This document shows positions 1,846 to 10,992 of a stretch of DNA of 11,694 nucleotides, piece by piece. Source of the stretch: Candidatus Heimdallarchaeota archaeon (GTDB lineage Archaea; Asgardarchaeota; Heimdallarchaeia; JABLTI01); the NCBI GenBank assembly GCA_019056785.1, contig DXJV01000094.1:1-11694 (forward strand), given 5' to 3'. The notes below the pieces were generated by a model. That model did not search any database, was not told where the DNA came from, and saw only the letters and a program-made list of their open reading frames with translations. Every line of letters starts with the position of its first letter. The first letter of the stretch is position 1. The position numbers and the translations under genes were made by a program.

Positions 1846-2066
1846 TTGAAATATCGACCATTATTAGTTATTGATTCACAAGGAATTTTCAGTTTTGCTT
1901 AAAATCAGATTTCTTTTTTAATTTATTAAGCTACAGATAAAATTGAAATAGGAGAAAAATTAGCACAAAAGATACAAAATAATAAATGTGGGTAGCCCCT
2001 ACTCATATTTAACCATTTCAAATAAATACTTAAAAACAAAATTACTAACACAATAATAGAAAGTAA

Positions 2067-2080
2067 GAAAAGTTTATGAA
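2067..2080 (+). promoter_or_regulatory. Putative archaeal BRE (GAAAAG) + TATA (TTTATGAA) promoter for the surface protein gene
   Basis: Purine-rich BRE-like hexamer directly before a TTTAT box, about 75 nt upstream of ATG 2156. An SD-like GGTGA lies at 2143-2147. The region is AT-rich, so a chance match is possible. Confidence 0.35.
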
Positions 2081-2155
2081 ATGTGAACTTTTCAAGCTTA
2101 ATAAACAAAGTAATTGTCCGCTCCAATTTGCAAGAAAAACTTGGTGAAAGTAAAA

Positions 2156-5100
2156 ATGAAGAAAAGTACTAATCACATTTTGATTACGAGTTTAATAGTT
2201 GTCATGCTAATTTCAATAGCACAAGTGGCGAATTCTTTAGGAGAAAAAACTGAAACAATCTCAAGTCAATTTGAAACGAAAAGTTCAGAGAAAAAGGCGA
2301 TCGCCTCAACAATTTTCGAGTCTTTTGCACACATCAATGCTATTTCTGAAGGCTTTTCAAAGATTGGTGAAATAGATGTCGATTAGGGAAACGCCTACAA
2401 AATTTATCGCTCAGGGACAATCCTTTTTGTGGCGGGAAAAAGTGGTGGCGTAACATTCCTTGATGTTTCCAACCCTAGCAACCCCAGAGTATTAGCCAAC
2501 TATTGGAGTGGAGGAGAAATTTACGATGTTATTTATTATCAAGGTTATTGTTATTTGGCATCACCACAAACCGGCTTGGAAGTCATTGATATCACTGATT
2601 GGGACAACATCAAAAGCCTGAACAAGACATATGATGGAGGACAAGCATATGACATGGACTTTGTCGGTTTGAATACTTTATATGTCGCAGACGGAACGGA
2701 CGGATTGGAAATTTATAATTTCAGAGATAGCAAAACTACTTTCACAAAAGTTGCAGCTGACACATTTGGTGTGAGCAAAGTTCTCAGTGTAAAAGTTGAC
2801 CCTCTCGAGAATATTGCCTTTTTAATGTGTGGAACTGATGGTATTGTTGCCTTAGACATTACTCGGCCCTTACAGCCAAACTTTTTAGCTCTTCTAAAGG
2901 ACGGTTCAGTGGATGCTCAACAAGCAGATTTAAGTGCCCATCTTTTATATGTCGCAGATGGTACAAATGGCTTGAGAGTTTATAATTACACAGATCGAAC
3001 AAACATTACACTTAGTGGCACATTCTCTATTGGTCCTGGGGAATATGCTAATTTCTTCCGCTGGGACATAAATAAGAAAGGCTTCCTTTCGACTGGTCCA
3101 AATGGTTACCTCTATCTCTTAAATATCACAAATGTCTCGAGTATTACTGAGCGTTGGAAACGAAGCTTTACTCCGGGCTTTCCAAATGATGTTGCAATCA
3201 ACCAAAAGATCATTTACTTTGCAAATGATTACGATTTAAAAATTCTTAATTTGAATAACATAACCAACCCACAAGAATATTCTCATGTAATTTTTGCTGG
3301 TGAACCAAGCTCTGTACACGTGTCTGGAAACATGGGTGTTTTGGCTGAAGGATTAACAGGAATTGATGTGATAAACCTATCGGATATCACTTCGCCACAA
3401 CTTCTCAGAAAATTTGAAAAAACAGGCGTAAACTTCTATGATGTCTTAATTAATGACTCTAACATCTATTGTGCAACAAGTGAGGGGCTTGAAGTTGTCT
3501 CAATTACCGACCCCCAAAACCCTGTTAACCTCTCGAGTCTCTCTCTCGGAGAAGCATATGCAATTGACTTGAAAGGCTCAGTTGGCTATTTAGTTAGCTC
3601 TTCAGGGCGCCTCCGAACGATTGACCTTTCTGATCCGGCTAATCCAACACAACTGGATAGTTTGGTTATTGGAGATACATGCTACGATCTTTCTATTGAA
3701 AGTAATTATGCATATGTGAGTTTTAAAAGCACGGGCGACCAAGGCTTTGCAGTAGTGGATATTTCAGATCCAAGTAATCTCCAATTGGATAATACTTACA
3801 CCGTTGCTGGTGGTGCTGACGGACTATATGCAAATGGCACACTTCTCGCAGTTGCAGCATTGGAAGCTGGGCTTAGATTGTATGATATCACCGACCCAAC
3901 TTCTGTAACCTTCCTAAATAATGCATTAACAAGCTATAATGTTTCCAAAGTCTATGTTGCAGGTGATGAAATATATGCAGCCGCCCAAGATGATGGATTG
4001 TATAGTATTAACGCTTCAAATGTTCTCTCACTTACATTGGCTGGGCATTTCAATGATGGCGGTGCTACAGTAAATGTCTTGGTAAATAATACCTTCATCT
4101 ATTTAGCTGATAGTGTTGATTCTTTTGAGATTATTGGCCAAGATAGTGATCTCGACCGATTGTCAGATTATCTTGAGACTACCTATTATGGCTCTGACCC
4201 GAACAGCATTGATACAGACCTTGATGGTTTATACGATGGTGACGAAGTGGATTACTGGACAGAGCGAAATGTTGACCCTCTAAACGATTTTGATAATGAT
4301 GGTTTTGTTAATCTACTTGATATAGACTCAGATAATGACAACATTAACGATGGTGATGAGATTAACATTTGGGGTTCAGACCCAATTAACCTGGATTCTG
4401 ATGGTGATGGTCTGCCAGATGAAGATGAAGTGTATGTCTACGGTACACAACCAGCACTAGAAGACACGGATGGCGACGACTTGACCGATTATGATGAGAT
4501 CAAAGGGTATTATGCTCCTACAAATCCTGCTGCAAACGCTACAGGCTATGTCTTGACAAATGCAACAAATCCCGACACCGATTATGACACTCCCTACGAT
4601 GGATGGGAAATTCAATATGGCTTTAATCCTCTTGTGCCTGATAGTCATTTTGACAATGATAGCGACCTTTTGAATGCCACGATGGAGTTTTTATATGGTT
4701 CTAACCCATTTGATGCGGATACAGATGATGATGGCCTTACCGATGGAGAAGAAGTGCTAAGCTATAATACAGATCCAACATTGGAAGACACAGATGGCGA
4801 TTTAATGGATGATTACTATGAAATCAATCAAGGCTTTGATCCATTGGATGATTCTGACAGTCAAGATGATGCTGACAACGATGGCTTGACAAATTATGAA
4901 GAATTCTTCTGGCATACGAATCCTCATTCAAATGACACAGACGGTGATGACATGTCGGATAAATGGGAAGTATATTACGGAACAAATCCATTGGTAAATG
5001 ATACCGGCTTGGATTATGATGGTGATGGTTTAACCAATTTACAAGAATATAAATTTGGGACAAATCCAACTGACCCAGATACGGATGATGATGGCTTCCT

Positions 5101-5263
5101 GGACTCGGAAGAAATTGCTGCAGGGACAGACCCCACAGATGGTGATGACCATCCTGAACGAACAACATCCACACCTCAACTTGGCATAGGCTTTCCAATT
5201 TTCGTCGCCTCGTTGATAATGGTGGGTACAACTTTAATAATCGTCCGAAAACGGAAACATTAA
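2156..5263 (+). CDS. Secreted, C-terminally anchored surface protein: signal peptide + about 14 LVIVD-type beta-propeller repeats + about 14 Asp-rich DxDxDG (TSP3-like) Ca-binding repeats + TM anchor; contains an in-frame TAG at 2384-2386 (codon 77)
   Basis: ORFs 2114..2386 and 2429..5263 are in the same frame. The intervening codons read GNAYKIYRSGTILFV with no further stop and form the start of an LVIVD repeat. The N-terminus MKKSTNHILITSLIVVMLISIAQVANS is signal-peptide-like and follows GGTGA. The C-terminus is GIGFPIFVASLIMVGTTLIIVRKRKH. Length is 1035 aa if the TAG is decoded; otherwise it is a recent pseudogene or a base-call error. Confidence 0.85.
2387..4140 (+). repeat. About 14 protein-level LVIVD repeats (about 42 aa each), likely two 7-bladed beta-propellers
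   Basis: Repeating G-x-A-x-x-(V/I)...(L/I)Y(V/L)A..xGL.(V/I)(I/V)D(I/V)(S/T)(D/N)P..P, e.g. GVTFLDVSNPSNP, GLEVVSITDPQNP, GFAVVDISDPSN, GLRLYDITDPTS. Counted by eye. Confidence 0.85.
4142..5150 (+). repeat. About 14 Asp-rich D-x-D-x-D-G-L-x-D/N-x-x-E...G(T/S)(D/N)P calcium-binding repeats (bacterial/archaeal TSP3-like)
   Basis: DSDLDRLSD, DTDLDGLYD, DSDGDGLPD, DTDDDGLTD, DADNDGLTN, DYDGDGLTN, DTDDDGFLD and others, usually followed by E...G(T/S)(N/D)P. Confidence 0.88.
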
Positions 5264-7930: not shown

Positions 7931-8036
7931 ACCAATATTCCCAAATCTACGAAATTGTTTTAAACTAACAGTCTATCGTAAATTCTATATATCTAGAAAA
8001 AGGTAATCTCTTGAGAAAACAAGGAAGGAACTGAAA

Positions 8037-8873
8037 TTGGATCCGAAGAAAATTATCAGTAAAAACCTCATCATTTTTGTTGCAGCGACAATTCTAATTG
8101 TCTGGAATATTGGAAGTTTTCAATTAGCAGCACAAAAGAGCGTAACATCTCTCACTCCTTCCAAGAATGGTGTTCCAGGTGATGGCTTGGGAACGCCGGG
8201 AGTGCAACAGATTCAACCGCCTCTTGGAAATGTTACCAATCTTCCAAACGCCACCACGTATCTAAATATGTTTATCTTTAATTTACCCATTGAGTTGACT
8301 GTGGTCTTTTTAGGCGAATTCTTTATTGGGGCATTGGTGAAAACCGACAAGAAACGCTCGACTTTCTTGAGATTATTACAAACTCTGGGTGTGGGAACCT
8401 TATTGAGTGTCTTTTCAGGCTTAGTTAATTATCTTATTGTTTGGCCGGCAATGCATGATATGCCAATTCATTATCCAGATCCTTCCTTTGAGTATGTGCC
8501 GGCAGAAACATTCTTCACGCCAGCAGTCGATGTTGTTATGTATTTTGTCGCAATTATAATCATCCTCGCATTGCATTTTCTTGCATTTAAATTCCTCCTA
8601 GGATACAAGTATTCCTCAAGTGGGATTGGCATAATTATGCCAGCATTGTATTACTTTATTGTCTGGCGGTCCCTAACAAAACAAAAAATCCCACAAGCAT
8701 TTTGGGATAAAAGTCAGCAACATTTCTACTTGGCACTAATATTCGCAGGAGGATTTATTTTAATAAATGTGCTAATTCTGATCTGGAATTTATCCCTTGC
8801 AACGAGGAAAAAACCAGAGAAACGTGCAAAGGGAGCAGCACAAACATATGCCAGTAGTTTACATAATGACTAA
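8037..8873 (+). CDS. Hypothetical polytopic membrane protein (N-terminal TM/signal, Pro/Gly-rich linker, about 5-6 further TM helices, basic tail)
   Basis: 278-aa ORF with several long hydrophobic stretches. TTG start preceded by AAGGAAGG. No family motif recognised. Confidence 0.75.
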   Translation: MDPKKIISKNLIIFVAATILIVWNIGSFQLAAQKSVTSLTPSKNGVPGDGLGTPGVQQIQPPLGNVTNLPNATTYLNMFIFNLPIELTVVFLGEFFIGALVKTDKKRSTFLRLLQTLGVGTLLSVFSGLVNYLIVWPAMHDMPIHYPDPSFEYVPAETFFTPAVDVVMYFVAIIIILALHFLAFKFLLGYKYSSSGIGIIMPALYYFIVWRSLTKQKIPQAFWDKSQQHFYLALIFAGGFILINVLILIWNLSLATRKKPEKRAKGAAQTYASSLHND

Positions 8874-8917: not shown

Positions 8918-8964
8918 GTATTATGTTGCGGTGAATTTTACTAGACAAGCCGAACGAATTTTCC

Positions 8965-8981
8965 ACAAAGGCTTTTTAATA
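8965..8981 (+). promoter_or_regulatory. Putative archaeal promoter (BRE-like ACAAAGG + TATA-like TTTTTAATA) with predicted start near 9001
   Basis: ACAAAGGCTTTTTAATA. A T/G initiator step at 9000/9001 lies about 25 nt downstream of the box centre. There is no plus-strand protein gene downstream for it to serve. Confidence 0.55.
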
Positions 8982-9000
8982 TCATACAAAAGTAGAAAGT

Positions 9001-9218
9001 GTAAACTTCGCCCCAGGAAAAGGGGACATCATTAAACTTGAAGTGACATTCCACTCGGAATGTCATTTAAACCTTCCAACGAACAATAACTCTAAGAATA
9101 CATTAACTTCCAATACCTTGTGAAGTAAGCTGTTAACCTCTATAAAACTTATTTTTCAAAGGCACCCACTCGTTAAACAGACAGGGGAACTTTTCCCCTG
9201 TCTCCTCCCTCTGCTTCT
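9001..9218 (+). ncRNA. Candidate structured non-coding RNA (about 200-220 nt) of unknown family
   Basis: Lies between convergent genes and has its own promoter-like element. Hairpins at 9011-9025, 9041-9068 (12 bp including one G-U on the + strand), 9106-9126 and 9179-9203 (11 bp perfect), followed by a pyrimidine tract. A repeated TAA(A)CYT motif runs through it. No plausible + strand ORF. Confidence 0.5.
9179..9203. terminator. Perfect 11-bp inverted repeat AGACAGGGGAA-CTT-TTCCCCTGTCT; 3' end hairpin of the candidate ncRNA and/or of the PHP operon mRNA
   Basis: Exact reverse complement seen directly. It sits 31 nt past the PHP stop on the minus strand and is followed by CCTCCCTCTGCTTCTT on the plus strand. 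Confidence 0.55.
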
Positions 9219-9234
9219 TAGTTGATTAAAAGTT

Positions 9235-9951
9235 CTAGTCTATTTGCTCGAGTATTTTTCGCAACAATTTTCGGACAGATTGTTGTAGTGTTTTTTCAAT
9301 GTCTTCTGGGGACATGCCTGCTCCTTTTAAAATTGCTTCTCCTTCTTCATAGGTTAACATATCGCTTGGTTTATGGCTGTCAGTATTTTGTATGAATTCT
9401 GCTCTGACGCTTTTACCAACCTTGACTGTATGGCCATTTGTCACGCCATGGGTTTTGTTTGAAGTTATTTCTAAGAAAATATCGTGTTTTTTACAGAGGG
9501 TTGCGACTTGTTTAGTAATTAATCCCGGATGGGCTAAAATATCTACCTCTTTGTTTTTTGCGGAAGCCAAATTTGTTCCCGGCTCTACCGGTTCAGAGAT
9601 TGTTTCCCCGTGGAGGACGATAAGTAGTGCATTTTTCTTTTTTGCCATCTCGACGATGCTATCAATAGCATCCACTGGTACGTGGGTTATTTCTACCCCT
9701 GGAATTGCAACCATCCCCCATTGTTTTATTGCTAATAAACAATCTCGAGTAACCTTCTCAATAATATCGAGGTTCGCTGCACTTACATGATCTGTAATGG
9801 CGTATGCTACATGGCCTTTTACATAGGCTCTTCGAAGCTGTTCGATTGGTAAGAGCGCTCCATCACTCAAAAATGAATGGGTGTGAAAGTCACATCGGCC
9901 AATCCGTGGTTGTGCCAATAATTCTTCAATTGCTTCTTTAAGAATTCTCAT
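9235..9951 (-). CDS. PHP-domain phosphoesterase (archaeal MJ1295-like 'histidinol phosphate phosphatase domain' family)
   Basis: Metal-binding motifs DFHTHS, AITDH, GVEITHVP, LHGETISEPV, ILAHPGLI and NTDSH. Ends with TAG. Confidence 0.9.
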   Translation of the reverse strand: MRILKEAIEELLAQPRIGRCDFHTHSFLSDGALLPIEQLRRAYVKGHVAYAITDHVSAANLDIIEKVTRDCLLAIKQWGMVAIPGVEITHVPVDAIDSIVEMAKKKNALLIVLHGETISEPVEPGTNLASAKNKEVDILAHPGLITKQVATLCKKHDIFLEITSNKTHGVTNGHTVKVGKSVRAEFIQNTDSHKPSDMLTYEEGEAILKGAGMSPEDIEKTLQQSVRKLLRKILEQID

Positions 9952-9975: not shown

Positions 9976-10992
9976 TTATTCGCTTGTAAACTCCGGAATC
10001 TCCTCAATTCGCCAGCATAAAACTGTATGGTCATTTCCAAGGTCCACCAGAGGTGGCTCTTCTCGTCTGCATTTTTCAATTGCATATTCACATCGGGGAT
10101 GGAATCTACAGCCAGAGGGATAATTTGTTGGGTCAGGTTCATCGCCGGGGATGGGTTTGAGCCTCCCTCGTGGTGCCATACTAGGTGAAGCATAAAATAA
10201 TCCTTGTGTGAAAGGATGTTTTGGGTGGTAAAAAATTGTTTCTACATCACCATGTTCGATTATTTTCCCCGCATAAAGAATTGCCACGTAATCTGAAAGT
10301 TCTGCAAGGACCCCAAGATTATGGGCAATTAAAATCATCGTTAATTGATATTTCTCTTTCATAATTTGGAACAGGTCCAAGATTTGTCTGGCGACAGTTG
10401 CATCAATATTTGCTACTGGCTCATCAGCAATGACTAATGTTGGATTATTTATTAAAGCTGAAGCGATTTTAACTCGCTGACTTTCGCCCCCGCTTAATTG
10501 ATGGCTGAATTTCTCAGATGTTTTCACCGGCTCAGAAATAGCTACTACTTGGAGCTGACTTACAACCAGCATCTTTACTTCGGGGTTAGCGTATTTTTCT
10601 TTAGTATGTGCGCGAAATGGTTGACTCGTTGCAAATGTCATGTCTCTTGTGGGGTCAAAACTCCCAGGAGCGTTTTGGAGTATTAATGAAATCTCTTTCC
10701 CTCGGAGATCATTTAATACTTCTTCAGGTGCTTTTAAAAGGTCTTTGCCTTTGTAAATGACTTCTCCTTCCACAATTTTGCCTGGGCGTTCTACAAGGTT
10801 GAGGATGGAGCGCGCTAAAACAGATTTGCCTGAACCAGAGGGGCCAAGAATGCCAAGCGTTGTCCCTCGATAAATTTTAAAGGAAACCCCGTCTAAAATT
10901 TTGAAAACAACTTTGTATTTATTAGTATAATAGGTTTTCAAGTTCTGGACTTCTAGTAAGACTTCTTTATTGGTTTTAACAGTCAATTTCAC
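9976..10992 (-). CDS. Oligopeptide/dipeptide ABC transporter ATP-binding subunit (OppD/DppD-like) with C-terminal Cys-rich domain
   Basis: Walker A GPSGSGKS, signature LSGGE, Walker B VIADEP, H-loop IAHN, HPFT, and GCRFHPRC...C...C tail. GTG start. Confidence 0.93.
   Translation of the reverse strand: MKLTVKTNKEVLLEVQNLKTYYTNKYKVVFKILDGVSFKIYRGTTLGILGPSGSGKSVLARSILNLVERPGKIVEGEVIYKGKDLLKAPEEVLNDLRGKEISLILQNAPGSFDPTRDMTFATSQPFRAHTKEKYANPEVKMLVVSQLQVVAISEPVKTSEKFSHQLSGGESQRVKIASALINNPTLVIADEPVANIDATVARQILDLFQIMKEKYQLTMILIAHNLGVLAELSDYVAILYAGKIIEHGDVETIFYHPKHPFTQGLFYASPSMAPRGRLKPIPGDEPDPTNYPSGCRFHPRCEYAIEKCRREEPPLVDLGNDHTVLCWRIEEIPEFTSE

Follow-up and report, generated by a model that had tools for sequence, protein, structure and literature searches.

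The stretch of DNA analysed here, called the window below, is 11,694 nt of contig DXJV01000094.1 from a Candidatus Heimdallarchaeota archaeon. At about 9001-9217 on the plus strand, between two convergent genes, it very probably carries a real gene for a non-coding RNA (ncRNA), as predicted from the sequence. The predicted product is an uncatalogued archaeal small RNA (sRNA) of the intergenic kind, specific to one family of Heimdallarchaeia. A transcription unit of its own is predicted because a conserved B-recognition element (BRE), TATA box and initiator stand at fixed spacing and the hairpin at the 3′ end covaries. The whole is best explained, with a probability of about one half, by an independent ncRNA gene whose product would act in trans as a riboregulator and mask ribosome-binding sites. 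All genomes compared are metagenome-assembled genomes (MAGs); that of the window, G000, comprises 2.87 Mb in 102 contigs.

The gene and its promoter

The gene lies in a 361-bp gap flanked by open reading frames (ORFs) at 8037-8873 on the plus strand and 9235-9951 on the minus strand, here called gene A and the PHP gene. Both end toward the gap, as the first-pass annotation of this DNA had remarked. That annotation had also proposed an RNA gene of about 200 nt behind a BRE/TATA-like promoter. The proposal is supported by conservation, covariation and the promoter itself, which recurs in 14 orthologous sequences. Compared with shuffled sequences, 8990-9225 is predicted to fold better on either strand, and more markedly on the plus strand (z = -3.86, equalled by none of 200 shuffles) than on the minus strand (z = -2.67). 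Two resources carry the comparison, the covariance model R1, built from ten members of the window's genus, and the alignment A3 of 15 sequences, which joins the copies of the 11-genome family with four metagenome copies and includes upstream DNA for 14 of them. The gene and its promoter elements are as follows.

~9001-9217, plus strand: ncRNA gene, about 205-215 nt here and 195-260 nt in relatives; covariance-model match at 9000-9217
8928-8945, plus strand: upstream element GCGG-N2-3-AATTTTACTAGA (GCGG at 8928-8931, AATTTTACTAGA at 8934-8945), kept in 14/14 sequences with upstream DNA
8958-8968, plus strand: ATTTTCCA(C/G)AA box, near-invariant in the family (14/14 sequences with upstream DNA)
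8965-8972, plus strand: BRE-like purine stretch, conserved in the family
8973-8982, plus strand: TATA box TTTTTAATAT, near-invariant; the family form is of the TTTTAATAT type
9000-9005, plus strand: initiator-like TGTAAA, with TGTA in 15/15 sequences

The spacing of these elements is strict, TGTA(A/T)A lying exactly 41 nt after the TTTTCCA box in every one of the 14 sequences with upstream DNA. The BRE/TATA element fits the (C)GAAAG-N-TTTAAAA pattern that precedes tRNA genes of the same genome. In archaea the usual distance from the TATA box to the transcription start is about 26 nt, so transcription would be expected from about 9001-9004, and the start is accordingly predicted from this distance, rather than mapped, at G9001-A9004. 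The two boxes further upstream (8928-8945 and 8958-8968), spaced about 24 nt from each other, make up a loose direct repeat; they are probably binding sites for a regulator.

RNA structure and strand

The predicted transcript alternates stable hairpins with stretches that are poor in G and largely unpaired. Its parts, from 5′ to 3′, are listed below.

9011-9025, plus strand: hairpin H1 with a CCC(N)/(N)GGG stem, in 15/15 sequences; loops of ~3-12 nt, variable in sequence
9041-9068, plus strand: hairpin H2 with a 9-bp core (9044-9052/9057-9065), extended by 3 bp to 12 bp in the window copy
9066-9081, plus strand: single-stranded motif 1, UUUAAA-(A/C)(U/C)CCUUCCA(C/A), directly after H2 (CCTTCCA at 9072-9078); proposed seed
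9082-9146, plus strand: fast-evolving, G-poor linker; mean pairwise identity 0.43
9106-9126, plus strand: third hairpin, ACTTCCAA/TTG(T)GAAGT, within the linker; this species only
9147-9156, plus strand: ACUU(A)-U4-5 tract; mean pairwise identity 0.78
9158-9178, plus strand: block 3, AAAGGCACCCACUCGUUAAAC, where conservation within the RNA is highest
9179-9203, plus strand: 3′ terminal hairpin of terminator type, 11-bp stem (9179-9189/9193-9203) and 3-nt loop
9204-9217, plus strand: pyrimidine-rich 3′ tail; mean pairwise identity 0.39, exact 3′ end uncertain

H2 and the terminal hairpin carry the structural argument. The arms of H2 occupy 9041-9052 and 9057-9068 in the window, with G9043-U9066 as the sole imperfection. 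Its core is 100% paired in the 15 sequences, where the only variation is a change from A-U to G-U (6/15), and the loop is free to vary (3-7 nt). The predicted unpaired probability of H2 is 0.00 and its mean pairwise identity is 0.78. The terminal helix has eight modelled pairs, none of them invariant, which are 98% paired, with compensatory changes at four of the eight; the covariation that the first-pass annotation had named as a check is thus present. Taken together, the two modelled helices are paired in 99.2% of the cells of A3; sliding the partners by 1-3 columns lowers the figure to 39-55%. They contain 20 G-U cells and no A-C cell. The 20 G-U cells would be mismatches on the minus strand, which fixes the plus strand as that of the folded molecule. 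The strand argument first made from the single G-U pair of the window thus extends to the whole family.

All four hairpins of the first-pass annotation lie where it had placed them, with a pyrimidine tract after the last. Three of them (9011-9025, 9041-9068 and 9179-9203) are conserved, and the remaining one, the third in order at 9106-9126, is confined to this species. H1, which reads CCCC-AGGAAAA-GGGG in the window copy, was judged from per-sequence folds, as was the long-range helix described below, the alignments being out of register in both places. In H1 a single compensatory change (CUC/GAG, in G007) stands beside a single disrupting one (in G006), so its support is moderate.

The segments between the hairpins differ strongly in constraint. 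A CC(U/C)UCC motif, mostly AUCCUUCCAC, follows H2 on its 3′ side in 15/15 sequences, with a mean predicted unpaired probability of 0.92. The linker that comes next has a G content of 7-12% in 13/15 sequences and contains between one and seven CCUCC-like motifs; across the family, RNAalifold predicts no consensus pairing within it. In the window it is shorter and remodelled, with a second CUUCCAA copy at 9107-9113. Also peculiar to this species is a periodic UUAAAC(C)U pattern: the UA(2-4)C(1-2)U motif occurs seven times in 9000-9152, where 0.8 would be expected (P < 0.002). Thirteen of the 14 orthologues have 0-2 copies and one metagenome copy has four; at chance level or absent in most orthologues, the repeat is no family feature.

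Block 3 stands at the other extreme. Its 19-nt core, AAGGCACCCACUCGUUAAA, is identical in 14/15 sequences, and its mean pairwise identity is 0.94. A candidate long-range helix would pair it with a G-containing segment of the linker about 55-66 nt to its 5′ side in 11/15 sequences (for example GAGUG..UGCCU or CGAGU..GGGU..GCC). This linker-block 3 pairing beats composition-matched shuffles (P of 0.01 or less); of nine sequences folded, six have it in their minimum-free-energy structure. It is absent from the window copy and from the second genus of the family; part of the homologous linker segment in the window forms the species-specific hairpin 9106-9126 instead. The predicted unpaired probability of block 3 is 0.82 in the window against a family mean of 0.37.

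These observations bear on two readings in which the locus would hold no RNA gene of its own. The conserved DNA might be the 3′ untranslated region (UTR) or terminator of gene A on the plus strand, or of the PHP or ABC gene on the minus strand, or the RNA might be processed from the gene A transcript. In every case it does come right after gene A, with the same orientation, and the terminal hairpin stands 32 nt from the PHP stop codon, where it could terminate transcription in both directions. Against such an origin, T-rich, terminator-like tracts separate the gene A stop codon from the conserved block, and a BRE/TATA element at a fixed 41 nt from the start motif would be left unexplained. The G-U asymmetry excludes the minus strand, and the RNA persists in genomes without PHP. 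A 3′ UTR or processing product is therefore quite improbable.

Conservation at the level of DNA (regulator sites, an antisense promoter or an origin-like element) is more improbable still. The minus strand of the U tract and block 3 (9147-9167) reads GGGTGCC-TTTGAAAAAT, a TATA-like stretch that resembles the TATA region of the plus-strand promoter, and H2 is a dyad of the kind seen in many protein-binding sites. The minus-strand stretch, however, lacks the A-rich BRE of the genome's promoters, and the 3-7 nt between the arms of H2 suit a hairpin and not a dimer-binding site. Selection on DNA would account neither for compensatory changes in the terminal helix nor for 20 G-U cells against none of A-C. 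The frequent genomic matches to an 11-12-mer overlapping this stretch look like ordinary coding sequence, and the Pfam matches in eight neighbouring ORFs include no replication-initiator (Orc1/Cdc6) family.

Distribution

The RNA is confined to the family of the window. A blastn search of the gap against 40 relatives gives matches only within that family, in two blocks, 8926-9078 at 69-75% identity and 9133-9203 at 82-94%. R1 has exactly one full-length match in each of 10/11 family genomes; by genus, the matches number 9/10 in the window's genus, and the second genus is matched at 65 bits. The family genome without a match is 64% complete and its contig stops 17 nt after gene A, so the RNA locus there was simply not assembled. 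There is no R1 match in 71 genomes from six other families of the class, nor in any of 149 further Asgard genomes drawn from across the phylum. Metagenome contigs, screened for a sequence pattern and then with R1, add four more divergent copies with scores of 115-133 bits. Exact matches to the 19-mer of block 3 come from nine species genomes, MAGs titled Candidatus Heimdallarchaeota or Promethearchaeati, which bears out the Asgard affinity presumed in the first-pass annotation.

Each relative has one copy, always between gene A and a convergent gene, and the promoter and hairpins are kept in these syntenic Asgard relatives. When ten relatives are aligned by blastn, nucleotide similarity extends over the RNA region in 6-9/10, as often as over the PHP coding region, and over gene A in 0-2/10.

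One locus carries a discordant name. L023 (G009, DATKZI010000014.1) is titled 'Candidatus Bathyarchaeia archaeon', yet its RNA, gene A and PHP follow the usual order, and it is grouped in the same genus as the Heimdallarchaeota MAGs. The Bathyarchaeia label is probably wrong.

Known RNA classes, repeats and coding capacity

No Rfam 15 family matches at its gathering score anywhere in the window. Permissive filters bring up only noise, the best scores reaching 11.8-20.3 bits where the thresholds are 43-100 and no E-value falling below 0.45, and ARAGORN reports no tRNA or transfer-messenger RNA. The RNAs of the signal recognition particle (SRP) and of RNase P are encoded elsewhere in G000, as Archaea_SRP at G000:C14:10244-10550 (124 bits) and RNaseP_arch at G000:C6:5822-6156 (141 bits), and both are also found in four relatives. 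Since they lie on other contigs, 9001-9217 is not a divergent copy of either. The first-pass annotation had recognised no known type of RNA here, and that impression holds.

Other classes can be set aside on their own features. A C/D box sRNA is contradicted by the lack of TGATGA or CTGA in 9000-9217 and by a length of ~210 nt where 50-70 nt would be expected, with a guide of 10-12 nt complementary to rRNA or tRNA. An H/ACA sRNA should have an internal pseudouridylation pocket and a K-turn or K-loop; H2 and the terminal hairpin are uninterrupted, and what follows them is UUUAAA and CCUCC, not ACA. A riboswitch or 5′ leader would need a gene to control downstream on its own strand, and in every genome the gene that follows is convergent (PHP, or a putative ABC ATPase if PHP is absent). 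Matches to 16S and 23S rRNA are interrupted and 7 nt or shorter, which speaks against an rRNA guide or chaperone.

The gap is single-copy in G000, and its other matches there are 44 nt or shorter with E > 0.003; it is thus neither a miniature inverted-repeat transposable element nor an insertion sequence remnant, two origins that the first-pass annotation had named as refutations, nor a dispersed repeat. The 12-mer TGCCTTTGAAAA, present on about 10 contigs, was considered as a shared promoter or target and rejected, its contexts being unrelated and resembling ordinary coding sequence.

Translation of the locus is extremely unlikely. The window does contain a 26-aa ORF on the plus strand (9043-9123) and a 41-aa ORF on the minus strand (8941-9066), the latter with a GGAAGG box shortly before an ATG that lies inside H2. 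The minus-strand ORF has no ATG in G008 and G010, shrinks to 11 aa in G004 and G005 and to 23-24 aa in G009 and G011, and is 40-41 aa long elsewhere. Plus-strand ORFs change in frame, length and start codon among the orthologues, and alignment gaps are not multiples of three. On neither strand is an ORF of 12 aa or more conserved in frame, length and start codon.

Proposed mode of action

The RNA may function as a trans-acting riboregulator. A regulated archaeal promoter, with its two upstream boxes, BRE/TATA and initiator, would drive its synthesis, and its exposed pyrimidine motifs, by pairing with purine-rich ribosome-binding sites, would block the initiation of translation. The leading candidate target is the GGAAGGA ribosome-binding site of the co-inherited gene A. 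Block 3 would have a second, sequence-specific partner and would be masked in part by the internal helix in most orthologues. There is precedent in Methanosarcina, where the intergenic sRNA41 and sRNA154 mask ribosome-binding sites (PMC5867862). The putative target comprises two features.

8037-8873, plus strand: gene A, a 278-aa polytopic membrane protein; directly upstream of the RNA on the same strand, always
8017-8026, plus strand: ribosome-binding site of gene A, AAGGAAGGAA; AGGAAGGA in most orthologues

Shine-Dalgarno sites of the genome are of the AGGAG/GAGGA/AAGGA type and the 16S rRNA ends in ...GAUCACCUCCU (CCUCCU), so that the pyrimidine motifs of the RNA are anti-Shine-Dalgarno-like. 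In gene A, AGGAAGGA is the exact complement of UCCUUCC, allowing 7 bp in most orthologues and 6 bp in the window. Sites of the GGAAGG type precede about 1% of the genes (11/1975 in one count, about 25 genes in another), and among the twelve genes of the window gene A is the sole one to have such a site. The gene and the RNA also have matching distributions and are always adjacent. Action through base pairing is given slightly less than even odds.

Several results weigh against riboregulation by masking of ribosome-binding sites. The pairing with gene A amounts to 6-7 bp only, and duplex energies of the whole RNA with the gene A initiation region are mostly no better than those of shuffles (z of -0.2 to -2.0, with one outlier at -5.1). 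In G005 and G009 the site reads GGAUGGA, for which no change in the RNA cleanly compensates. The short pairing, the shuffle-like energies and the missing compensation keep confidence in gene A as a target low, and a direct effect of the RNA on it is doubtful. Block 3 offers no nucleic-acid partner either: a complement of 13 nt or more is absent from the G000 genome, one of 8 nt or more is absent from the window's neighbouring genes (a single 8-nt match occurs over 11 loci), and there is no notable match in 16S or 23S rRNA. The invariance of the 9-bp stem and of the 20-nt block fits recognition by a protein no less well than base pairing. At the level of the gene itself, promoter, start and 3′ end are all predictions from MAG sequences of uncultured archaea; no oligo-T terminator follows the terminal hairpin directly, and no run of five T occurs before 9252.

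Since block 3 is invariant while its internal partner varies, a second sequence-specific interaction is indicated, with RNA or with protein. The RNA could accordingly be a protein-binding or scaffold RNA, that is, a small ribonucleoprotein (RNP) or a protein sponge, in which H2, the U tract and block 3 would be recognition sites for proteins such as the Sm-like archaeal protein (SmAP). Assignment of the U tract to an Sm-like protein is speculation. The sequence of the H2 stem is invariant around a freely varying loop, 14/15 sequences share an identical block 3 whose pairing partner varies, and a U4-5 tract is conserved between structured elements, all in favour of protein contacts; the searches with block 3, which gave no nucleic-acid partner, point the same way. 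However, the locus has no linked gene for a candidate protein, its only constant neighbour coding for a membrane protein; restriction to one family speaks against a core housekeeping RNP, and the sponge-like repeated UAAAC(C)U motif is confined to one species. A protein-binding RNA is thus a weaker explanation than the riboregulator, though its main rival. Improbable is the more elaborate proposal that the RNA forms the core of a lineage-specific RNP with an Sm-site-like layout and does not regulate mRNAs; the 9-bp stem, U tract and block 3 would be recognised by protein and RNA, and the internal helix that masks block 3 in most species would be a conformational switch.

Neighbouring genes

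The constant companion of the RNA is gene A. It is present in 11/11 family genomes and in 0/71 others of the class. Neither Pfam nor NCBIfam yields a match for its protein, and nothing usable came from the ESM Atlas. Gene order is constant (NUDIX gene, gene A, RNA, convergent gene), and protein identity among the family genomes is 30-49% for gene A and 45-65% for PHP. The first-pass annotation had tied the RNA to the PHP gene. This link does not hold: PHP is absent from two RNA-bearing genomes, and the RNA still adjoins gene A there.

At the two loci without PHP, L020 (G002, 3289-4305) and L018 (G011, 2058-3080), a convergent gene of 338-340 aa stands directly after the RNA. It has the same size as the ABC ATPase gene of the window (9976-10992) and is putatively an ABC ATPase too. 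The PHP neighbour was also considered as the RNase P protein Rpp30; the Rpp30 model scores 14 bits against 246 bits for a PRK06361-type histidinol-phosphatase-like PHP protein.

The leader of gene A keeps a promoter box of its own, ATCGTAAACTCTATATAA-like, in the orthologues at L018-L027 and L103. The gene A orthologue of G003 (L011, G003:C130:8330-9436) has a 413-aa open frame in which two separate matches cover residues 8-146 and 153-257, and it appears to carry a mid-protein insertion of about 120 aa.

Elsewhere in the window, 2429-5263 holds a 944-aa ORF with Asp-rich repeats of the D-x-D-x-D-G type (direct-repeat families D1, D2, D5 and D8). In the same genome, the 23S rRNA match at G000:C99:38470-42544 spans 4075 nt against a model of 2987 positions; the sequence suggests large insertions or expansion segments in the 23S rRNA of G000. 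Such features have been reported for Asgard rRNAs (PMC7594248).

Comparison with known systems

Most of what is known of Asgard archaea comes from metagenome bins, and an RNA gene without an Rfam family stays unannotated. The literature searches found no description of this RNA, of heimdallarchaeial sRNAs or of small regulatory RNAs in Asgard archaea. The locus yields a well-delimited RNA family supported by comparison, for which there are an alignment of 15 sequences and a covariance model, together with invariant motifs and a predicted promoter and start. If the UCCUUCC/GGAAGGA pairing with gene A is true, it would be a first worked example of riboregulation in Heimdallarchaeia. Should block 3 be a protein site, it would point to a new RNP, and if the RNA were an RNP core, the archaea most closely related to eukaryotes would have an RNP of a new class. 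Although restricted to one lineage, the RNA offers a good starting point for RNA regulation in Heimdallarchaeia.

The archaeal C/D box, H/ACA, SRP and RNase P RNAs share with this RNA that they are stable, structured and intergenic and have their own promoters. In contrast to the guide RNAs among them, it has no C box (RUGAUGA), D box (CUGA), pseudouridylation pocket, ACA box or notable complementarity to rRNA.

In bacteria, sRNAs of the RsaE/RoxS type bind Shine-Dalgarno sites through C-rich motifs and expose UCCC motifs in loops. They resemble the RNA described here in having G-poor, unstructured pyrimidine motifs between hairpins, followed by a terminator hairpin, and in the complementarity of these motifs to purine-rich ribosome-binding sites. 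They are bacterial and shorter and show no homology to it, and the likeness is an analogy of design only.

The sRNA41, sRNA154 and sRNA162 of Methanosarcina mazei (PMC5867862) are, like this RNA, archaeal, intergenic, non-coding and a few hundred nt long or less. The Methanosarcina sRNAs act by masking ribosome-binding sites, whereas the same mechanism is only proposed here for the exposed UCCUUCC. They come from a different phylum and have no sequence or Rfam relationship to the RNA of the window. The heimdallarchaeial RNA adds to their design an invariant 20-nt block and a 9-bp stem that a base-pairing model leaves unexplained.

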